Of a stretch of 64,000 nucleotides of DNA, positions 3,281 to 44,490 are shown one piece after another. The first letter of the stretch is position 1. Each line of letters opens with the position of its first letter. A program made the translations under genes and the position numbers. Origin of the DNA: Myxococcales bacterium (lineage in GTDB: Bacteria > Myxococcota_A > Polyangia > Polyangiales > Houyiibacteriaceae); the NCBI GenBank assembly GCA_012744445.1, contig JAAYBZ010000138.1, positions 845 to 64,844 on the forward strand, written 5' to 3'. Below the pieces are notes generated by a model that was not told the DNA's origin, made no database searches, and saw only the letters and a program-made list of their open reading frames with translations.

Positions 3281-5142
3281 ACGCGCTCGAGCGCGGCCTC
3301 GATCGCCTCCTCGCGATGCCTTCGCCGGCCACGGACGCGCTCGAGGAAGCGCTCCTCCGCGAAGCCGTCGAGGCGCTCCGCGCGCGCCCCTATTTCGGCG
3401 CCGGCCTCGTCGATGAGGGCGACGACCATGCGCTCCTCCTCGAGGCCACGGCGAGCGTGCGGCTCTTCGTGCTCCACCACTTCGTCACGCCCCTCGAGCG
3501 CGACGAGGCGACGACGCGCGCCGCGCTCCGCCTCGTCGAGGCGCTCGAAGCCCGCGAGGACGCGCTCGCCCGACAAGCGCCCGCCCCGCTCGCGCTCCGC
3601 CACGAAGTCCTGCGCTACCTCCACCCGAGGCCGCTTGCGCGGAACCTCGAGGGTCTCCGCGAGCTCCTCGCCCGCGTCGAGGCGATGCCCGAACGGCGCG
3701 GCATCTTCCGCTTCCTCCGCGACAAGGCGCACCAGCACCTCCAGTTCTATCGCCTCTTCTTCCGCGCCAAGGCCTACCTCGCGCGGACGCGCCGCATCCG
3801 CGAGAAGCTTCCCCCGCGCGTCCGCGCGCTCCCCGTCGCGCTCGAGACCTTCTCCGCCGTCGAGCAGATGGGGCCCATCGTCGACAACTTCGTCTTCGAC
3901 GGCCTCGGCAAGCCCGCCTCGGATCCCGCGGTCGCCATCGCCGACTTCGGCTTCCTCTACATGCAGATGGCGGACGAGCTCGTCGACTCGATCCTCCACC
4001 ACGCGGGCTACGAGCGCACCATCACGCTCGTGCGGCGGCTCGCGCTCTCGCCCGAGGGGCGCGCGGCCTTCGTGCCCTTCATGCACGTCGAGGCGGCCGA
4101 TCTCCACGAGGTCGGGCTCACCTTCGACTCACCGAACGAGAAGTACCGGACGACGCTCGGCGAGATGATCCTCGCTCTCCGCGAGCTGCGCGAAGTGATC
4201 GAGCGCGAGATCGAGCGGGTCGACGACGCGGAGGGTGTGCGGCGCGAGCTCTCCGCCTTCTTCCACCACTGCTTCTCGACCTTCCTCGACGAGCTCGAAT
4301 TCCTCCGCTCGCGGCCGGGCGCGCGCCTCGACAAGCTCCCGCTCGGCGAGACGCTCTTCCACTTCTACCGCAAGAACAACCTCGTGATGATGCGGTGGCT
4401 CGGCCTCCGCGCGCGGCTCCGCGGAATCGATCCGCGGATCCCGGAGAAGCGCATCCGCGCCTTCGGCTACGTGCTCGCCACCTTCCAGGTCTTCGACGAC
4501 CTCAAGGACCTCGCCGTCGACCTCGAGAAGCAGCCCAACTACGCGCTCCAGATCGCGGCGAGCCACCACCCGCACGAGCTCGCGCGCGCCGAGGCGCGCT
4601 TCTCCTCGCACCGCGAGGCCCTCCGCGTGCGCGACATCCCCTGGGTGAACCTCCGCATGCCCGGCACGGTCCTCACCTGCTTCCGCCTCGTGAAGCTCAT
4701 CGCGCGCTCGCACTTCTCGTGGTTCGAGGACTACGTGATCGATCTCCGCTGGCGCCGGAACTGGCTCGTCCGCCGCGGCAACTTCAACCCCGGCGAGGCG
4801 CGCGGACACCTCCTCGAGGAAGCGCTCGGCGAAGGGCGGCGCCTCCCGCTCCCGGCGCTCGCGCGCGCCGTGCTCCGCGAGCTCTCGGTGCTCCATCGCG
4901 ACGCGAGCCACGACGAGCTCCTCGCCTACGTCTTCGACGTGCTCGCCTTCGAGCGGCGCCCGGCGCTCTGCCTGGCCGCGCTCCCGAACCTCCACCGCGT
5001 CTACCGCATCCTCAACCTCTCGATGCGCATGGCGCCCGAGGAGAAGGCCCGGATCGTGCGCAAGATCCTCGAGATCGCGCCCGAGGAGGTCCTCGCCGTC
5101 GAGCCGCTCCCTCGTGACAACCCGGGTCTCCACGAGACATAG
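3277..5142 (+). CDS. 621-aa helical hypothetical protein with polyprenyl-synthase-like DDxxD signature
   Basis: GTG 3277 overlaps the TGA of the ATPase (GTGA). The region upstream of 3277 in the 871-aa track ORF is an Arg-rich shadow over the ATPase gene. Motifs are ATFQVFDDLKD (aa 403-411) and MADELVD (aa 231-237). Confidence 0.6.
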   Translation: MNALERGLDRLLAMPSPATDALEEALLREAVEALRARPYFGAGLVDEGDDHALLLEATASVRLFVLHHFVTPLERDEATTRAALRLVEALEAREDALARQAPAPLALRHEVLRYLHPRPLARNLEGLRELLARVEAMPERRGIFRFLRDKAHQHLQFYRLFFRAKAYLARTRRIREKLPPRVRALPVALETFSAVEQMGPIVDNFVFDGLGKPASDPAVAIADFGFLYMQMADELVDSILHHAGYERTITLVRRLALSPEGRAAFVPFMHVEAADLHEVGLTFDSPNEKYRTTLGEMILALRELREVIEREIERVDDAEGVRRELSAFFHHCFSTFLDELEFLRSRPGARLDKLPLGETLFHFYRKNNLVMMRWLGLRARLRGIDPRIPEKRIRAFGYVLATFQVFDDLKDLAVDLEKQPNYALQIAASHHPHELARAEARFSSHREALRVRDIPWVNLRMPGTVLTCFRLVKLIARSHFSWFEDYVIDLRWRRNWLVRRGNFNPGEARGHLLEEALGEGRRLPLPALARAVLRELSVLHRDASHDELLAYVFDVLAFERRPALCLAALPNLHRVYRILNLSMRMAPEEKARIVRKILEIAPEEVLAVEPLPRDNPGLHET

Positions 5143-5149
5143 TCGCGCC

Positions 5150-5521
5150 GTGGCCAGCCTCGAAGACAAGAAGCGCGCCGTCGCGCGCTACATCGAAACC
5201 GTCTCCGCGGGAGACCTCGACGGAATCCTCTCGCTCTACACCGAGGACGCGACGCTCGAAGATCCCGTGGGCTCGGCGCCCGTGGTGGGTCACGCCGCCA
5301 TCCGCGCCTTCTACGAGCGCGCGACCAAGATGGGCATCCGCCTCGAGCCCACCGGCCCCGTGCGCATCGCCGGCGACGAGGCGGCCTTCCCCTTCCGCGT
5401 GAGCACGGTAGGCGGCCCCAAGATGACCATCGACGTGATCGACGTCTTCCGCTTCGACGAGGCGGGCAAGGTCGTCTCCATGCGCGCCTACTGGGGCAAG
5501 GAGAACATGAAGATGGGCTGA
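5150..5521 (+). CDS. ksi: delta5-3-ketosteroid isomerase (NTF2/SnoaL fold)
   Basis: From GTG 5150 the 123-aa product matches the remembered Comamonas testosteroni KSI block for block: RYxxxxxAGDLDGI, DATLEDPVGS, AAIRAFY, FRFDEAGKVVSMRAYWGKEN. Tyr14, Asp38 and the Asp99 equivalent are in place. Confidence 0.8.
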   Translation: MASLEDKKRAVARYIETVSAGDLDGILSLYTEDATLEDPVGSAPVVGHAAIRAFYERATKMGIRLEPTGPVRIAGDEAAFPFRVSTVGGPKMTIDVIDVFRFDEAGKVVSMRAYWGKENMKMG

Positions 5522-6641: not shown

Positions 6642-7766
6642 TCAGATCCGCATGGGCATGACCACGCCCACGAAGTCGACGTCGTCGCCGACCGGACGGA
6701 TCACGCCGGGGTCGAGCTCGCCCGAGAGCTCGAGCGAGACCTCGTCGTGGGAGAGGGCCTGGAGCGCGTCGAGGAGGTAGCGCGCGTTGAAGCCGATGGA
6801 GATCGAGTCGCCCGAGTAGTCGACGTCGACCTCCTCGAAGCCCTCGCCCACCTCGGGGTTCTGGCTCTGCACGCGGATGAGGCCCGGCTCGATGCAGAGC
6901 TGCACGCCGCCGCTCTTGTCGTGCGCGACGAGGCTGATGCGCCGGAGCGCCTCGACGAGGTTCGCGCGGCTCGCGACGATCTTCCGCGCGTGCTGCTTGG
7001 GGATGACCTTCTCGTAGGGCGGGAACTGCTCCTCCGCGAGCTTCACGCTGAGGAACTGTCCGTCGTGGCGGAAGAAGGCGCTGCCCGCGGCCTTGGCGAT
7101 GCCGATGACGGGCGCGCCGCCCTTGTCGAGCGCGCGGACGTCGTCGAGGAGCTTGCGGAGCTCGGTGACACCCTTGTGCGGGATCAGCATCGAGAAGTCG
7201 AAGCTCGCGCCCGGGACCTTGCGCTCGGCCTTGGAGAGGCGGTGGCCGTCGGTCGTGACCATGCGCACGATCTCGCCCTTGCCCTCGAAGAGCGTGCCCG
7301 AGAGGTGCGGGCGCGTGTCGTCCGACGACATGGAGTAGTGCGTGAGCGTGATGAGCTCGACGAGGCGATCGGCCGGGACCTCCGCGAAGGTCGCGTCGAC
7401 CGGCATGGGCAGCGGCGGGAAGTCGTGCCCCGGGAAGCCCGGCACCTTGTACTGCACCTTGCCGCAGCGGATGGTCAGACCCCGGTTCTCGCCGACCGTG
7501 ATGGAGACCTCGCCCTGCGGGAGCGCCCGCACGATGTCGTGCAGCATCTTCGCGGAGACGGCGATCTGCCCTTCACGCACGACCTTGGCGGGCACCGTGG
7601 AGGTGACGCCCTGGTAGAGGTCGGTCGCGCTGAGCCGGAGCGCCTCGTCGCCCTGCGTGGCGAGCAAGACGTTGGAGAGGATGGGCATCGAGCCCTTGCG
7701 CTCCGCGACGCCGTGAGTGCGGGAGAGACCTCGCAGAAGGTCTCGCTTGTCGATGCTGAGCTCCAT
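6642..7766 (-). CDS. dnaN: DNA polymerase III beta sliding clamp
   Basis: 374 aa. N-terminus MELSIDKRDLLRGL...PILSNVLLAT, with the three-domain clamp pattern and C-terminal VVMPMRI. Confidence 0.95.
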   Translation of the reverse strand: MELSIDKRDLLRGLSRTHGVAERKGSMPILSNVLLATQGDEALRLSATDLYQGVTSTVPAKVVREGQIAVSAKMLHDIVRALPQGEVSITVGENRGLTIRCGKVQYKVPGFPGHDFPPLPMPVDATFAEVPADRLVELITLTHYSMSSDDTRPHLSGTLFEGKGEIVRMVTTDGHRLSKAERKVPGASFDFSMLIPHKGVTELRKLLDDVRALDKGGAPVIGIAKAAGSAFFRHDGQFLSVKLAEEQFPPYEKVIPKQHARKIVASRANLVEALRRISLVAHDKSGGVQLCIEPGLIRVQSQNPEVGEGFEEVDVDYSGDSISIGFNARYLLDALQALSHDEVSLELSGELDPGVIRPVGDDVDFVGVVMPMRI

Positions 7767-7786
7767 GGGTCCAGGCTTTAGGGGTC

Positions 7787-7872
7787 GATCAGGCTTCGAG
7801 ATCGATCTGGGAAATTTAAAGATCGATCACGATCATCAGGGGTGTGGATTGGGGATGTTGGCCGCGAAGATC
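7787..7872. repeat. GATC-dense, locally AT-rich segment next to the DnaA-box array
   Basis: Seven GATC sites in 86 bp (7787, 7800, 7804, 7821, 7825, 7831, 7869), including GATCGATC twice. An all-A/T 9-mer AAATTTAAA sits at 7812-7820. Confidence 0.6.
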
Positions 7873-7983
7873 GCAATTTTCAACGGCAAATCGCGACGCG
7901 GAGCGGTGGATGGAAAAGTGGACACCTCGTGGATGAGTTTTTCCACAGCCTGTCCACGGGCGATGTCCAGAGCCTTGTCCACC
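7843..7983. promoter_or_regulatory. DnaA-box cluster upstream of dnaN (candidate oriC core)
   Basis: Seven 9-mers match TT(A/G)TCCACA at >=7/9. Reverse-oriented: 7843-7851, 7917-7925, 7928-7936. Forward: 7939-7947 TTTTCCACA, 7950-7958, 7963-7971, 7975-7983 TTGTCCACC. Confidence 0.5.
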
Positions 7984-8116
7984 GGATGCTCACATGCGAG
8001 AAAGTGAGACTATATCCTACATGAGCGAGAGACCATCCCCCGCGTCACGGCGCCCATGATGGATGAGGCCCCCTGGGGTGTCGAGCACCCCCCGCGGCTT
8101 CTCGCTTGGTTCGATC

Positions 8117-8130
8117 TAGAACGTGTTCTA
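8117..8130. promoter_or_regulatory. KstR-type operator-like palindrome TAGAACGTGTTCTA
   Basis: Perfect fit to TnnAACnnGTTnnA with fully inverted arms TAGAAC/GTTCTA. It lies 10 nt upstream of the ATG of the KshA-like gene. Confidence 0.4.
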
Positions 8131-8140
8131 TTCTCGGGCG

Positions 8141-9082
8141 ATGGGTCGGACGCAGGGGCTCGAGGGGTATCCGCGAGGACACTTCGTCGTCGCGTTCTCC
8201 GACGAGCTCGCGCAGGGCGAGCTCCGGCGTCTCCACTACTTCGGCCGCGAGCTCGTCCTCTTCCGTGATGCGGAGGGGAGGCCGCGCGTCCTCTCGGCGC
8301 ACTGTCCGCACCGCGGGGCGCACCTCGGCGTGGGCGGGAGCGTCGTGGGGGGCGAGGTCCGCTGCCCCTTCCACGGCTTCCAATTCGACGGCCGCGGCCG
8401 CTGCACGAAGATCCCCTCGGGCGGGCGCGTCCCCGAGGAGGCCCGGCTCGAGGTCTTCGAGACCACCGAGCGGAACGGGATGATCACCGTGCGCTACGAC
8501 CGCGGCGGCGTCGCGCCGGACTACGAGCTGCCCGAGCTCCCCGAGTGCCTCGACCCCGAATACTCCCCCTGGATGGTCCGCACCCTCCGCGTGCGCACGC
8601 ACCCGCGGGAGATCGTCGAGAACGTCGTCGACTTCGCGCACTTCGAGCCCGTACACGAGACGTGTGCCGAGCGCTTCGAGAACGAGTTCCGCGGCCACCT
8701 CGCCGTCCAGCGGAGCGAGGGCGTCGGCGCCCCCACGCATCGCTTCGCGGGGACGGCGTACCGCATCGAGGCCGTCTACCACGGGCCGGGCGTGCAATTC
8801 TCGCGCTTCGAATCACGTGGCATCCGCGTGGTCTTCGTCAACGCCAACACCATGATCGACGAGGGCACGGTGGACCTCCGCTTCGGCGTGCGCGTCGCGA
8901 CGGGCGGCGATCCCCGCTACCACGAGGGCTTCCTCCGGCATTTCATCGGCGACCTCCAGCGCGGATACGAGCAGGACGTCGCCATCTGGGAGCACAAGGT
9001 CTTCCGCGAGCACCCGGTGCTGGCCGAAGGAGACGGCCCCATCGGCGAGCTCCGCCGCTGGTATCGTCAGTTCTACACGTGA
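8141..9082 (+). CDS. KshA-family Rieske [2Fe-2S] non-heme iron oxygenase
   Basis: Rieske motif CPHRG...CPFHG, iron motif NVVDFAHFEPVH, and CTKIP, ERNGMITVRYD. The C-terminal DVAIWEHKVF...GDGPIGELRRWYRQFY matches KshA blocks. An alternative GTG start lies at 8123. Confidence 0.8.
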   Translation: MGRTQGLEGYPRGHFVVAFSDELAQGELRRLHYFGRELVLFRDAEGRPRVLSAHCPHRGAHLGVGGSVVGGEVRCPFHGFQFDGRGRCTKIPSGGRVPEEARLEVFETTERNGMITVRYDRGGVAPDYELPELPECLDPEYSPWMVRTLRVRTHPREIVENVVDFAHFEPVHETCAERFENEFRGHLAVQRSEGVGAPTHRFAGTAYRIEAVYHGPGVQFSRFESRGIRVVFVNANTMIDEGTVDLRFGVRVATGGDPRYHEGFLRHFIGDLQRGYEQDVAIWEHKVFREHPVLAEGDGPIGELRRWYRQFYT

Positions 9083-9090
9083 GGTCGACG

Positions 9091-10977
9091 ATGAGTCTGA
9101 GAGAGCTCCAAGCGAAGGCGGTCCGCGATCCGGAGGGATTCTGGGGGGAGGCGGCGCGCGCCATCACCTTCCGCGTGCCGCCCGCGCGCGTCCTCGACGC
9201 GAGCCGCGCGCCCTTCTACCGATGGTTCGTCGGGGGCGAGCTCAACACCTCGGAGAATTGCCTCGACCGGCACGTGGCGGCGGGGCGCGGCGATCAGCTC
9301 GCGCTGATCTACGACAGCCCGGTCACCGGCACGATCGAGCGCTACACCTACCGTGAGCTGCTCTCTCGCGTGGAGAAGCTCGCGGGCGCGCTCGCCGCGC
9401 GCGGGATCGCGAAGGGCGATCGCGTCGTCATCTACCTCCCGATGATCCCCGAGGCCGCCATCGCGATGCTCGCCTGCGCGCGCCTCGGCGCCGTGCACTC
9501 GGTGGTCTTCGGGGGCTTCGCCGCCAAGGAGCTCGCCGCGCGCATCGACGACGCCAAGCCCAAGCTCGTGCTCTCCGCGTCCTGCGGCATCGAGCCGAAC
9601 CGCGTCGTCGAGTACAAGCCGCTCCTCGACGAGGCCATCCGCCTCGCCACGCACGCGCCCGAGCGCTGCATCATCAAGCAGCGCGCCGCGCGCCGCGCCG
9701 AGCTCGTCGCCGGCCGCGACGAGGACTGGGACGAGGTCGAGCGGAGCGCCACGCCGCACCCGCCCGTCCCGGTCGAGTCCACCCATCCGCTCTACATCCT
9801 CTACACCTCGGGCACGACGGGATCGCCCAAGGGCGTGCTCCGCGACAACGGCGGGCACGCCGTCGCCCTCGCGTGGTCCATGGAGCACGTCTACGGCGTG
9901 AAGCCGGGCGAGGTCTTCTGGGCCGCCTCCGACGTCGGCTGGGTCGTCGGCCACAGCTACATCGTCTACGGACCGCTCCTCCACGGCTGCACCACCGTCC
10001 TCTACGAGGGCAAGCCCGTGGGCACGCCCGACGCGGGGGCCTTCTTTCGCGTCATCGCCGAGCACGGCGTCTCGGTCTTCTTCACCGCGCCCACGGCCTT
10101 CCGCGCCATCCGCCGCGAGGATCCCGAGGGAAAGCACGTGAGGCGCTACGACCTCTCCAAGCTCCGCGCGCTCTTCCTCGCCGGCGAGCGGAGCGATCCC
10201 ACCACCGTCGCCTTCGCCGAAGAGCTGCTCGGCGTGCCCGTCGTCGATCACTACTGGCAGACGGAGACCGGTTGGCCCATCGCGGCCAACTGCCTCGGCA
10301 TCGAGCGCCTCCCCGTGAAGCACGGCTCGCCCACCAAGCCCGTGCCGGGCTGGGACATCCGCGTGCTCGACGAGTTCGGCAAGGAGCTCCCCGCCGGCGA
10401 GATCGGCTCGGTCGTGGTGAAGCTCCCGCTCCCTCCGGGCAGCCTCCTCACCATCTACGGCGACGACGAGCGCTACGTGGAGAAGTACCTCTCGCGCTTC
10501 CCCGGCTTCTACGAGACCGCCGACGCGGGCTACCTCGACGAGGACGGCTACCTCTTCGTGATGGCGCGCACCGACGACGTCATCAACGTCGCGGGGCACC
10601 GCCTCTCCACCGGCGCGCTCGAGGAGGCGCTCGCCTCGCACCCCGACGTCGCCGAATGCGCCGTCGTCGGCGTGCACGACGAGCTCAAGGGACAGCTCCC
10701 GCTCGGCTTCGTCGTCCTCAAGGACGGGGTCGACCGGCCCCACGAAGAGGTAGAGCGCGAGATCGTCGCCCTCGTCCGCGAGCGCATCGGCCCCGTCGCG
10801 GCCTTCCGTCGCGCCGTGGTCGTGCCGCGCCTACCCAAGACACGGTCGGGGAAAATCCTGCGTAAGACGATGCAGGCCATTGCGGAGGAGCGTCAGGTCG
10901 ACACACCGGCTACGATCGACGATCCTAGGATCCTCTCGGAGATCGGCGACGCGTTGCGTTCTTCGAAGAGCCCCTGA
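9091..10977 (+). CDS. AMP-forming acyl-CoA synthetase, propionyl-/acetyl-CoA synthetase-like
   Basis: 628 aa from ATG 9091 (MSLRELQAKAVRDPEGFWGEAA, a PrpE/Acs-like N-terminus). Contains YTSGTTGSPKG, YWQTETG and PKTRSGKILR. The upstream part of the 810-aa track ORF is a shadow over the Rieske gene. Confidence 0.85.
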   Translation: MSLRELQAKAVRDPEGFWGEAARAITFRVPPARVLDASRAPFYRWFVGGELNTSENCLDRHVAAGRGDQLALIYDSPVTGTIERYTYRELLSRVEKLAGALAARGIAKGDRVVIYLPMIPEAAIAMLACARLGAVHSVVFGGFAAKELAARIDDAKPKLVLSASCGIEPNRVVEYKPLLDEAIRLATHAPERCIIKQRAARRAELVAGRDEDWDEVERSATPHPPVPVESTHPLYILYTSGTTGSPKGVLRDNGGHAVALAWSMEHVYGVKPGEVFWAASDVGWVVGHSYIVYGPLLHGCTTVLYEGKPVGTPDAGAFFRVIAEHGVSVFFTAPTAFRAIRREDPEGKHVRRYDLSKLRALFLAGERSDPTTVAFAEELLGVPVVDHYWQTETGWPIAANCLGIERLPVKHGSPTKPVPGWDIRVLDEFGKELPAGEIGSVVVKLPLPPGSLLTIYGDDERYVEKYLSRFPGFYETADAGYLDEDGYLFVMARTDDVINVAGHRLSTGALEEALASHPDVAECAVVGVHDELKGQLPLGFVVLKDGVDRPHEEVEREIVALVRERIGPVAAFRRAVVVPRLPKTRSGKILRKTMQAIAEERQVDTPATIDDPRILSEIGDALRSSKSP

Positions 10978-41622: not shown

Positions 41623-42543
41623 TCAGGGCACGTGCCCGAGGAAGGAGAGCTGGAGGATCGTCTCGCCGTAGCTCCCGAACTCCTGCCGGATCGAGAAGGC
41701 GAGCGAGATCTTCTGGTGTGAGTACCCGAGGCCGGCCGTGAGCGCGTGCACGTCGCGGCCGAGATCGCCCCGGTAGCCGAGCCGGAGGGGCACCTTGTCG
41801 AGCGCGACCACTTCGAGGCCCGTCCCGAGGAGGATCGTCGCGTGGTCGAAGGTGGAGAGGTCCGTGAGGAGATCGAAGCCGATGTCGACCACGCGCTGCC
41901 AGCCGTAGGCGATGCCGCCGCCCACCCGCTGGGGCACGAGCGGCGAGTGCCGGTCGACGAGGTTCTCGCCGATGACGGCGACGTGGAAGCCCTCGGTGAT
42001 CGTGAGGCGGACGGCGGCGTCCAGCGTAAAGCCCTTGGCGTGCGGGCCGATGGGCTGCCCGCCCTCGCTCTTGTCGTTCGCGCCGAGCCGCACGTAGCGC
42101 CCCGCGATGCCCGCCGACAGCCGGCTGCCGAGGCGCATGGCCATGCCGGCCTTGAGGTCGAGGCCGGAGTAGTCGCGCCCGCGGTTGCCGAAGACGCCCC
42201 GAGTCATGACGCCGGCGGCCACCGCCGCGGTGCGCGAGTCGACGATGGCACCGCCGGCGCCGAAGGTCCGCTCGCCCGCGACGTTCGTGAACGTGGTCTC
42301 GAGGTCGTAGAGGGGCACGAGCGGCATGTTCGCGACGTTGCCGGCGAGCGCGCCGGTGCCCCAGGTGCTCGCGCGGTTGCCGAGGCCGAGCGCGAGGCTC
42401 CGCGCGGTCTCGAAGCTGTCCTCGCGGGGCACGGTCGCGGGGGGCGCCGAGGAGACGCCGGAGGGGGCCTCGGTCTGGGCGCGGGCGGTCGCCGCCACGG
42501 CGAGGACGGCCAGCGCGAGCGCGGTCGCGGCGCGGGGGAGCAT
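41623..42543 (-). CDS. secreted beta-rich (outer-membrane-like) hypothetical protein
   Basis: Signal peptide MLPRAATALALAVLAVAATARA-Q from ATG 42543, followed by an alternating beta-strand pattern. Confidence 0.5.
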   Translation of the reverse strand: MLPRAATALALAVLAVAATARAQTEAPSGVSSAPPATVPREDSFETARSLALGLGNRASTWGTGALAGNVANMPLVPLYDLETTFTNVAGERTFGAGGAIVDSRTAAVAAGVMTRGVFGNRGRDYSGLDLKAGMAMRLGSRLSAGIAGRYVRLGANDKSEGGQPIGPHAKGFTLDAAVRLTITEGFHVAVIGENLVDRHSPLVPQRVGGGIAYGWQRVVDIGFDLLTDLSTFDHATILLGTGLEVVALDKVPLRLGYRGDLGRDVHALTAGLGYSHQKISLAFSIRQEFGSYGETILQLSFLGHVP

Positions 42544-42700
42544 GGCGCGCACTCTAAGGCCGAGCCTCCGCGTCCTCCAAAAACCTTGACGAAAGATCAG
42601 GATTGCACGAAGCCCCGCGACGTGGTGTGGCCGGCCCCCTCCGAGGACGGCCGTCACCCCGTGGGCCGAAAACCTACATCTTCATGCGACCTTCCCTTCG

Positions 42701-43073
42701 TCTTCCACAACCTATCCACAGCGTGTGAAAATTGGGGATAACTCGGGGCCGCTCGCGGCCTCCTCTCGGCGAGCGTCGCCGACGACGAATTTTGCAGTAA
42801 TTCCGATGTCTTACGCAGAAGAGCGGGGGCGGCTCGGAGGCCCTCGACGGGATCGCCTCGGATCGTGCTCTCGGAATTCGACGAGATCCCGAGCAGTTAG
42901 AAATTCGTGTTCGATCCCTCGTAGACGCCCCGAAAACGTCCTGCTAGGGTCGCCGCTCCTCAGCTCGAGGCAGGACGTTTCACCTCGTCGGAGCTTCCCC
43001 CCGAAGGAGCACGACGCGGCGGGCCGGCCCTGGTAGGGGGCTGAGCAGATCCCTGTGGATTACCTGGGGATCA
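42701..43073. promoter_or_regulatory. DnaA-box cluster upstream of dnaA
   Basis: 42701-42709 TCTTCCACA; 42712-42720 CTATCCACA; 42733-42741 reverse complement TTATCCCCA; 43054-43062 reverse complement TAATCCACA; 43065-43073 reverse complement TGATCCCCA. A further box sits at 43121-43129 inside the first dnaA codons. Confidence 0.45.
42934..42980. repeat. 11-bp perfect inverted repeat in the dnaA upstream spacer
   Basis: AAACGTCCTGC (42934-42944) and GCAGGACGTTT (42970-42980), separated by 25 nt. Confidence 0.6.
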
Positions 43074-43110
43074 ATGGGTTTTTCCGTCCTATTTCGTGGG
43101 TTGAACGCCG

Positions 43111-44490
43111 ATGCAGGTCCTGTGGAAGACGACGCTCGAATCACTTCGGGAGCACATTTCGGAGGAGACGTTCCAGTCGCTCATTCGCCCGATCGAGCTC
43201 GCGTCGCTCGAGGGAAAGACCGCCCTCTTCCGCGTTCCCAACACCTTTCACGGTGAGTGGGTGACGGCGAACCTCGGGGACGTCATCTCGGACGCCCTCT
43301 GCGCGGCGGCCGAGGATCTCGGCCGTGAGATCCCCCGCCCCCTCGAGATCGCCTTCGAGGTCGACGACTCCCTCATGGACCGCTTCGAGATCGAGGAGAC
43401 CCCGGCGGAGCCCGCGAAGCCCGCGCGCGCCTCGGTCGCGCCCTCGGCCACCCCCTCCGCCGCCCCGCGGCTCAACGCCAAGTATTCGTTCGACAATTTC
43501 ATCGTCGGGCCCTCCAACCAGCTCGCCCACGCCGCGAGCGTGGGGGTGGCCAAGGCGCCGGGATCACGCATGAACCCCCTCGTCATCTGCGGCGAGACGG
43601 GCCTCGGCAAGACCCACCTCACCAACGCCATCGGCCGCGCCATCTACGAGGCCAACCCGAAGGCGCGCATCATCTACCTCTCGGCCGAGGAGTTCACCAA
43701 CGAGTTCCTCCTCGCCCTCCGCAACCAGCGGGCCGACGAGTTCCATCAGCGCTTCCGCCGCGAGTGCGACGTCCTCCTCATGGACGACATCCAGTTCCTC
43801 GCCGAACGCGAACGCACCCAAGAGGTGTTCTTCCACACCTTCAACACCCTCTACCAAGAGGGCAAACAGATCGTCATCACCTCCGACGTCTACCCCCAGC
43901 ACATCCCCGGCATGCAGGAGCGGCTCGTCAGCCGCTTCGAGGCCGGCATGGTGGCCGACGTCCAGCCGCCCGAGCTCGACACCCGCGTCGCCATCCTCCA
44001 GAAGAAGGCCGAGGAGGAGGGTATCGACCTCGATCCAGCCGTCGCCGACTTCCTCGCGCGCGTCGTCAAGAACAACGTGCGCGAGCTCGAGGGCATCCTC
44101 ATCCGCCTCGCCGTCAAGGCCGAGCTCCTCGGGCGCCGCATCGACATGGAGCTCGCCCGGGACGCGACCCGCTCCCTCATCGTCGAGGCCAACAACACGG
44201 CCACCACGGTCGAGGACATCCAGAAGGCGGTCTGCGCGTACTTCGGGATCCGCCTGAGCGACCTCAAGGGCAAGCGTCGGCACCGCGCGGTGAGCTTCCC
44301 CCGCATGGTCGCCATGTACCTCGCGCGGCAGCGGCTCGGCACGAGCTTCCCCGAGCTCGGCGACCGCTTCGGCGGCAAGGACCACACCACGGTGATGAAC
44401 GCGGTCCGCAAGATCGACCGCCTCGTCGAGGAGAGCGACGAGCAGGTCGTCGCCAGCATCGAGGCCATCGAGCGCCGCCTCGGCTTCTAG
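43111..44490 (+). CDS. dnaA: chromosomal replication initiator DnaA
   Basis: 459 aa. YSFDNFIVGPSNQLAHAA, Walker A GETGLGKTHL, LLMDDIQFL, sensor and box VII regions, and domain IV GGKDHTTVMNA. Confidence 0.95.
   Translation: MQVLWKTTLESLREHISEETFQSLIRPIELASLEGKTALFRVPNTFHGEWVTANLGDVISDALCAAAEDLGREIPRPLEIAFEVDDSLMDRFEIEETPAEPAKPARASVAPSATPSAAPRLNAKYSFDNFIVGPSNQLAHAASVGVAKAPGSRMNPLVICGETGLGKTHLTNAIGRAIYEANPKARIIYLSAEEFTNEFLLALRNQRADEFHQRFRRECDVLLMDDIQFLAERERTQEVFFHTFNTLYQEGKQIVITSDVYPQHIPGMQERLVSRFEAGMVADVQPPELDTRVAILQKKAEEEGIDLDPAVADFLARVVKNNVRELEGILIRLAVKAELLGRRIDMELARDATRSLIVEANNTATTVEDIQKAVCAYFGIRLSDLKGKRRHRAVSFPRMVAMYLARQRLGTSFPELGDRFGGKDHTTVMNAVRKIDRLVEESDEQVVASIEAIERRLGF

Follow-up and report, generated by a model that had tools for sequence, protein, structure and literature searches.

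What is a perfect, A/T-rich palindrome doing directly in front of an oxygenase gene, next to dnaN, in a genome of 70% G+C? The site lies at positions 8117-8130 of a 64,000-nucleotide stretch of DNA, here called the window (G000:C74:845-64844 in our numbering; contig JAAYBZ010000138.1 of assembly GCA_012744445.1), from a Myxococcales bacterium whose assembly amounts to 3.77 Mb in 236 contigs and is 94% complete, with 2% contamination. An initial annotation had read the palindrome as a KstR-type operator of a gene of the KshA family (3-ketosteroid 9-alpha-hydroxylase), and the analysis presented here supports this. Judged from its sequence, the site is very probably a KstR-type operator of a steroid catabolic regulon, in an unexpected phylum. 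We put at about 0.85 the probability that it is the operator for a KstR-like TetR-family repressor encoded elsewhere in the same genome, at C17:13-609. The evidence for this repressor-operator pair is strong but indirect. The features concerned are as follows.

8117..8130, strand not applicable: palindrome, very probably a KstR-type operator (sequence and weight matrix)
8106..8134, + strand: predicted core promoter (read from the sequence)
8141..9082, + strand: KshA-family Rieske monooxygenase P0001, 313 aa (Pfam, PDB matches, tree)
9091..10977, + strand: PrpE/Acs-like acyl-CoA synthetase, 628 aa (Pfam, NCBIfam)
6642-7766, - strand: dnaN, then recF (domain matches)

The palindrome and its surroundings

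The sequence TAGAACGTGTTCTA at 8117-8130 is a 14-bp perfect inverted repeat with a 2-nt centre, TAGAAC-GT-GTTCTA. It is a perfect fit to the KstR-type consensus TnnAACnnGTTnnA, the ideal form of which is TAGAAC-N2-GTTCTA, and the initial annotation was right that every specified position fits and that the arms are fully inverted. The consensus agrees with the KstR site as published by Kendall et al. (2007, PMC1995591), who give it as TAGAAC(N2)GTTCTA and place it over the -10 element. No other sequence in the window, on either strand, matches TNNAACNNGTTNNA, and dinucleotide-preserving shuffles predict 0.06 matches; this, together with the genome-wide excess described below, bears out the view that such a site is unlikely by chance.

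The first ATG of the downstream open reading frame (ORF) is at 8141, and the palindrome ends exactly the previously noted 10 nt (8131-8140) before it. There is an in-frame GTG at 8123, which falls within the palindrome; the ATG at 8141 was chosen in the gene calls on all six of the other public contigs that carry exactly the same protein, giving a product of 313 aa. These six contigs come from near-identical strains, with 0-2 synonymous differences, and are uninformative on constraint. Among them the length of the dnaN-kshA gap varies (393, 375 or 374 nt), and the stretch from operator to ATG is identical in all. In the window the palindrome forms the right-hand edge of a 374-bp gap of low G+C (0.54-0.62 across 7767-8140, against approximately 0.70 in the flanks) between the divergent dnaN (-) and oxygenase (+) genes.

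Recurrence of the motif across the genome

The initial annotation had proposed a genome-wide scan for the motif. This finds 28 sites, overwhelmingly in front of steroid and lipid catabolic genes. The relaxed pattern T..AAC..GTT..A occurs 34 times in the genome against approximately 5 expected from base composition by our own calculation, and the off-consensus matches (TTGAAC.., TCGAAC..) are those that fall inside genes. The strict palindrome TAGAACNNGTTCTA occurs 14 times, against once for a reversed control pattern. A weight matrix was built from the TAGAAC-like sites. The separation is clear: 28 sites score at least 20, followed by one at 19.5 (a second operator overlapping the one at C143:4260), and below it there are only intragenic hits scoring at most 16. 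The site at 8117-8130 scores 31.3 on the matrix from the genome's own 28 sites and ranks fourth among them.

Of the 28 sites, 23 are intergenic, although the genome is approximately 93% coding according to a rough GC3-based gene call. The remaining five lie inside over-extended ORF calls, with an in-frame start codon 5-82 nt downstream of each, and the Pfam domains of these over-called ORFs begin at residues 116, 157, 176 and 559. At least 12 of the sites end no more than 17 nt from a probable start codon. The genome's sole tandem site is at C143:4248-4273 (L015 ~3989-4014), where two half-overlapping operators, AGTGGATCACGTTCTAGAACGTGTTCTAGT, stand upstream of a P450 gene.

The window shuffles and the genome-wide counts rule out a chance occurrence. 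Two other identities for the motif were considered and rejected. The LexA/Cheo-type SOS box is GAAC-N4-GTTC, whereas the spacing at 8117-8130 is N2 and the genes that flank the sites are catabolic; and the motif A.CAAG..CTTG.T, which would mark a second, KstR2-type regulon, occurs only once in the genome and is intragenic.

The operator is also found in related genomes. Strict operators number 14 in the host, 8 in G001, 9 in G011, 8 in G008, 5 in G016 and 3 in G003, and several are found only in genomes that have 4-14 copies of KshA, whereas the others have 0-1 and the control pattern gives 0-2. The 30 related genomes compared are kin, and the relation is therefore given as a pattern, with no statistical test. 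Eight KshA-like genes in the relatives have an operator directly upstream, and in one relative the orthologue of the KshA copy on contig C10 has an identical operator, TGGAACATGTTCTA.

The KstR-like regulator

As the initial annotation stated, there is no TetR gene in the window, and indeed the genome's 19 TetR-family genes all lie on other contigs. When all 19 were searched together, KstR was the best PDB match for one only, which supplies the KstR-like regulator that the annotation had suggested looking for. This is C17:13-609(-), a protein of 198 aa whose top match is M. tuberculosis KstR (5cw8, full length, E 4.6e-20); the KstR entries 5aqc, 5cw8, 3mnl and 5ua2 all match it over the full length. 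M. tuberculosis KstR is Rv3574, and its M. smegmatis counterpart MSMEG_6042. The helix-turn-helix region, ..VRLRDVAASANVALGTVYKRFSSK.., aligns closely with ..VQMRAVADRADVAVGTLYRYFPSK.. of KstR. Its sole NCBIfam match at E<=1e-10 is NF033703, 'transcr_KstR' (cholesterol catabolism transcriptional regulator KstR), at E 3e-34; at E<=1e-15 this model matches no other protein in the genome, and it matches nothing in 14 control genomes.

The genomic position of the gene points the same way. It lies 47 nt after the fourth KshA paralogue and is the last gene of an operon headed by an operator at C17:6740. The order kshA, then kstR is repeated in the relatives G016, G003 and G008, and the two genes are neighbours in other arrangements in G005, G013 and G014. 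A second TetR gene, C17:8379-9002, lies 1.6 kb upstream of the C17 operator.

The oxygenase and its neighbour

The peptide blocks that had suggested a KshA (CTKIP, ERNG..V.YD, NVVDFAHF..VH, DVAIWEHK and GPIGELRRWYRQFY) are all present in the translation of P0001. The protein has a Pfam Rieske domain (71.7 bits), with the Rieske motif CxH...CxxH present as CPHRG...CPFHG, and a KshA_C domain (171 bits) that covers profile positions 3-207 of 207 and is thus of full length. Among solved structures it is closest to Rhodococcus KshA5 (4qdc, E 5e-55, 190 bits) and M. tuberculosis KshA (2zyl, E 3e-51, 178 bits), both aligned over residues 10-312 of P0001, whereas all other Rieske oxygenases in the PDB match the N-terminal domain only. 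These two are R. rhodochrous KshA5 (4QDC) and Rv3526 (2ZYL). The Rieske cysteines and histidines are kept relative to both structures, as are the DxxH-x4-H and QD..IW motifs, which in KshA bear the iron ligands; the positions of these ligands (His-x4-His and Asp) align with both.

In a tree of 79 homologues, a single clade of 15 rows (SH-aLRT 99) contains P0001 together with the two characterised KshAs. This is nested in a clade of 24 rows (SH-aLRT 100) which otherwise consists only of the myxobacterial family's own copies, and the characterised actinobacterial KshAs nest inside a myxobacterial clade. The sample comprised the six paralogues of the host genome, copies from 17 related genomes, named metagenome-assembled genomes of ten phyla and the two crystallised KshAs. 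Both P0001 and the KshA pair are on long branches; when the tree was rebuilt with either removed, the other stayed in the same clade, and across the tree runs the clades holding P0001 or KshA had 13-15 rows and SH-aLRT values of 99-100. Far from falling outside the KshA/steroid clade, the outcome that the initial annotation had named as fatal to its reading, P0001 groups with M. tuberculosis KshA and KshA5, and by its sequence it is a member of the KshA clade.

A sterol demethylase of the SdmA type was considered and rejected. Both are Rieske oxygenases, and SdmA acts on sterols in bacteria, myxobacteria included. However, the SdmA model (NF052579, 4-beta-methylsterol monooxygenase) matches P0001 in the Rieske domain only (residues 14-167; 70 bits against a cut-off of 600), and the catalytic domain of P0001 is of the KshA type, which places it outside the SdmA family.

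The acyl-CoA synthetase gene starts 8 nt past the kshA stop codon, and the same order of the two genes is seen on six public contigs; they are probably co-transcribed. Its product has the Pfam domains ACAS_N, AMP-binding and AMP-binding_C, and in NCBIfam it comes closest to propionate--CoA ligase, with 764 bits, under the cut-off of 955 bits. The assembly collection has the identical P0001 protein indexed in 131 blocks.

The comparison with the actinobacterial KshA enzymes gives both likenesses and differences. P0001 shares with them the Rieske CxH...CxxH motif, a full-length KshA_C domain and membership of the same clade, and its DFAHFEPVH and EQDVAIW align with DMAHFFYIH and LQDVEIW of KshA. 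As in the known KshA systems, a separate KshB-type reductase with FAD, NAD and 2Fe-2S domains is encoded in the genome, and as in R. rhodochrous (KshA1-5) there are multiple KshA paralogues. P0001 differs in its length, being a protein of 313 aa that ends in ...RQFYT and has approximately 45-50 C-terminal residues fewer than the actinobacterial KshAs of 386-394 aa. It differs also in that the HMMER similarity is moderate, the branch is long and the gene is followed by one for an Acs/PrpE-type CoA ligase.

Genes flanking the operators

The flanking genes were identified by Pfam and NCBIfam scans. Operators head three of the six KshA paralogues (P0001 and those on C10 and C135). The gene for the KshB-type reductase (FAD_binding_6, NAD_binding_1, Fer2) is at C10:4813-5865(-), with its own operator 46 nt upstream, and three KstD-like flavoproteins are found at operators, the best scoring 586 bits on the 3-ketosteroid-delta-1-dehydrogenase model. 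A ring-cleavage operon on C122 encodes HsaA (421 bits on the HsaA model, the cut-off being 450), an HsaC-like extradiol dioxygenase, an HsaD-like hydrolase and an FAA-hydrolase, and a gene for an HsaF-type aldolase follows at some distance on that strand. Two P450s and an HsaB-like flavin reductase are also at operators.

Genes for degradation of the side chain are present as well. The C17 operon encodes SCP2, a ChsH2-like protein, two thiolase-like proteins, an acyl-CoA ligase, KshA and the TetR protein, and a second pair with an operator consists of a ChsH2-like gene and a thiolase gene. Operators are found in addition at acyl-CoA dehydrogenase pairs, at further acyl-CoA ligases, at an enoyl-CoA hydratase operon that includes a gene of the bile-acid-symporter family, and at genes for a short-chain dehydrogenase/reductase (SDR), an aldehyde dehydrogenase, a GMC oxidoreductase and a luciferase-like monooxygenase. 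The contig of the KstR-like gene (C17) also carries an IpdAB-like CoA-transferase pair, and a gene of the 3-beta-HSD family ends 202 nt from one operator. A search of the 94%-complete genome turned up no squalene or oxidosqualene cyclase; exogenous steroids therefore look to be the target of the pathway, turnover of endogenous sterols being unlikely.

Two of the KshA paralogues without a complete operator have sites of another kind. The fifth (G000:C200:3309-3332) has a different palindrome, TCGAACGTG-N6-CACGTTCGA, which occurs nowhere else in the genome; it is 26 nt from the start and may be the site of another regulator. The sixth (G000:C94 ~2130-2160) has the right half-site CACGTTCTAG only, approximately 10 nt before the start, which could be a decayed operator or a half operator. 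The gene at the C22 operator encodes a protein of 315 aa with no Pfam match, an uncharacterised regulon member. A SnoaL_2/NTF2-fold gene at 5114-5521 adjoins recF, 2.6 kb from the operator at 8117-8130, and on C10 a further SnoaL_2 gene comes straight after the KshA paralogue.

A proposed promoter and mechanism

The sequence around the palindrome can be read as a promoter extending from 8106 to 8134. A -35-like TTGGTT (8106-8111) is followed by a 17-nt spacer, a -10-like TATTCT (8129-8134), six nucleotides and then the ATG, and the operator takes up the spacer together with two bases of the -10-like element, the first two. Were transcription to start 7 nt past the -10, the first base of the mRNA would be the A of the ATG, and the transcript would be leaderless or nearly so. 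The module GTTCTATTCTCG(N3-6)ATG is common to three operators, namely C74:8961 (this site), C10:3189 (the KshA paralogue) and C22:14274, and as far as can be read from the sequence, this implies a common design of leaderless promoter. At five other sites a TTGACA-like hexamer is found 16-18 nt upstream of the half-site TAGAAC, which would thereby serve as the -10 (TTGACA, TTGGCA or TTGCGC, 17 nt, then TAGAAC).

The position of the operator within the spacer and -10 element, taken with the description by Kendall et al. (2007) of an overlap with the -10, points to promoter occlusion. According to this proposal, a repressor dimer would bind the operator at 8117-8130 inside the kshA promoter and would bar RNA polymerase from the operon of kshA and the acyl-CoA synthetase gene, until freed by a steroid-derived CoA thioester, by analogy with mycobacterial KstR. 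The regulon of the C17 repressor would then consist of the KshA paralogues, the KshB-like reductase, the KstD-like proteins, HsaA/B/C/D, the P450s and the genes for beta-oxidation of the side chain. Here we infer the binding of the repressor, the occlusion of the promoter and the substrate of the enzyme, and the identity of the inducer is assumed.

Weighing the interpretation

A number of points count against assigning this operator to the C17 repressor and to steroid catabolism. The source is an uncultured metagenome-assembled genome, and our reading rests on analysis of its sequence. The C17 protein scores 118 bits against the 280-bit equivalog cut-off for KstR, which no relative among 31 genomes exceeds, and its similarity to M. 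tuberculosis KstR, though over the full length, is modest (75 bits). By sequence it is a distant relative of KstR and no certified equivalog, and its effector pocket may not be the same. The kstR-like gene has no operator immediately before it, and any autoregulation would have to act via the 6-kb operon upstream and not through a private promoter. At the site itself, the -35-like TTGGTT matches the consensus at only three of six positions, for which reason the consensus promoter scan made no call. P0001 is on a long branch and has an atypical composition, as in a fast-evolving copy; its closest homologues in the relatives, in G008 and G011, are only 51-52% identical and have no operator within 1.5 kb. 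Lastly, at approximately one third of the sites the flanking genes have no evident part in steroid metabolism, for example those for a histidine kinase, an Iso_dh-family protein, a WS/DGAT protein, a DUF4202 protein and TPR proteins.

Some of these points would fit a KstR-like operator and regulon whose natural substrate is no classical sterol or steroid but another polycyclic or isoprenoid lipid, or lipids in general, with the 'KshA' hydroxylating something else. Mycobacterial KstR was itself first described as a regulator of lipid metabolism (PMC1995591); the host's six KshA paralogues are divergent, at 38-50% mutual identity, which implies varied substrates; the fast-evolving P0001 has for its partner a CoA ligase of the propionate/acetate type and not a steroid gene; and some members of the regulon are unrelated to steroids. 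We nevertheless consider this unlikely, given that a full 9,10-seco ring-opening set (KshA/B, KstD, HsaA/B/C/D) is under the same operator, with the Hsa proteins having Hsa-specific NCBIfam models as their best or near-best matches. The IpdAB-like, 3-beta-HSD-family and ChsH2-like genes, the nesting of characterised steroid KshAs inside the clade of P0001, and the lack of squalene and oxidosqualene cyclases in a 94%-complete genome, which makes turnover of endogenous sterols improbable, argue in the same direction. It is less probable still that the operator is genuine but is read by a different regulator, either another of the 19 TetR proteins or one encoded in the unassembled 6% or so of the genome. 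The score of the C17 protein under the equivalog cut-off, the absence of an operator immediately before its gene, the incompleteness of the genome and the second TetR gene on C17 leave some room for this, whereas the PDB search and the KstR model single out the same one protein of the 19, its helix-turn-helix aligns closely with that of KstR, and its gene ends an operator-headed steroid operon beside kshA in a linkage that is kept across genera.

The gap in which the palindrome lies is directly upstream of dnaN, and contains four DnaA-box-like words (7843, 7928, 7939, 7975) and six GATC within 50 nt (7787-7831). The dnaA gene is on the same contig at ~43471-43956, approximately 35 kb from dnaN, and just upstream of it (42500-43100) there are five DnaA boxes, three of them with at most one mismatch, a denser group than that in the gap (7787-7990). 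Either region could be a replication origin. These DnaA-box-like words and the GATC cluster might suggest that the palindrome is an A/T-rich sequence that arose by chance, or part of an origin-like region, and is unrelated to kshA. We regard the chance of this as negligible: dnaN is 350 nt away from the site and kshA 10 nt, 27 further copies stand before catabolic genes elsewhere, a distribution that effectively refutes the idea, and in five other genera the 1.5 kb upstream of dnaN contain no such site. A role in oriC/dnaN control was rejected on the same distance and absence, and because of the denser DnaA-box cluster 35 kb away. We retain the reading of a probable KstR-type operator for kshA.

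Placement of the locus and of the host

The DnaN protein of the host is 66-69% identical to those of genomes labelled Sandaracinaceae or Myxococcales, and 60-69% identical to those of same-family relatives, compared with 40% for another Myxococcota genome and 29% for Nocardia. On the basis of the identities of 66-69%, the host is a Sandaracinaceae-like myxobacterium (Myxococcota). In five other genera the 1.5 kb before dnaN contain neither kshA nor an operator, and since P0001 also has no close homologue that bears an operator, the unit of kshA and CoA ligase beside dnaN is a lineage-specific placement. Elsewhere among the KshA_C proteins, there is a separate tight clade made up of sequences from genomes labelled Acidobacteriota, Gemmatimonadota, Rhodothermota, Chloroflexota, Latescibacterota, Thermodesulfobacteriota and Gammaproteobacteria. 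The branches between phyla in this clade are very short, which suggests recent spread between phyla, possibly in one habitat.

Comparison with the mycobacterial KstR system

KstR is known in Rhodococcus and Nocardia as well as in mycobacteria. The system described here has much in common with that of mycobacteria. The operator consensus is identical (TAGAAC-N2-GTTCTA, core TnnAACnnGTTnnA), and the operators overlap core promoter elements, here as predicted from sequence. The genes served are of the same kinds, comprising kshA, a kshB-type reductase, kstD, hsaACD, P450s and genes of the fadE/fadD/echA and ltp/ChsH types, and the regulator is a TetR protein of approximately 200 aa whose best solved relative is KstR. 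The size of the regulon is also comparable: beyond the first site, a further 16 have been described in M. tuberculosis and 31 in M. smegmatis (PMC1995591), making 17 and 32 as against approximately 28 here.

There are differences, of which the most obvious is that the host is a myxobacterium (Myxococcota) and the regulator is only distantly related (118 against 280 bits). The mycobacterial kstR gene points away from fadE34, with an operator in its own promoter, whereas the kstR-like gene here is the last in an operator-headed operon, after kshA. The genes of the regulon are spread over at least 20 contigs and form no single large cluster, no KstR2-type motif or second regulon was found in the host genome, and many sites are 1-17 nt from a start codon, suggesting leaderless transcripts.

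Bergstrand et al. (2016, PMC4810484) state explicitly that aerobic steroid degradation is limited to Actinobacteria and to some of the Proteobacteria. The survey of Holert et al. (2018, PMC5790920) likewise reports the pathway only in Actinobacteria and Proteobacteria. Neither survey mentions myxobacteria, and that of Holert et al. does not mention KstR. In the open-access full-text literature, we found no paper that links KstR, KshA/KstD or 9,10-seco degradation to Myxococcota. The mechanism itself is a known one and offers nothing new; it is the host phylum that appears to be unreported.

Biological significance

An odd A/T-rich palindrome in the window is best explained as an ordinary repressor site of a known type. 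The wider proposal is that a cholesterol/steroid system of actinobacterial type, with its repressor, an unchanged 14-bp operator code, KshA paralogues and Hsa genes, is common to Actinomycetota and to one myxobacterial family with small genomes. We hold this to be slightly the better bet. If it is true, we would have here the first description of a KstR regulon, and of a 9,10-seco pathway, from outside Actinomycetota and the classical Proteobacteria, and the code of regulator plus operator would have been kept almost letter for letter through transfer between phyla or through very deep descent. It would show that the operator code of a TetR protein can stay fixed while the regulator diverges strongly (to 75 bits against M. 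tuberculosis KstR). The operator also provides a handle for predicting the members of the regulon, among which are the six KshA paralogues and a number of unknown proteins with an operator at their genes. An apparently complete 9,10-seco pathway under KstR control, in a widespread uncultured myxobacterial lineage, would add a guild of steroid degraders.

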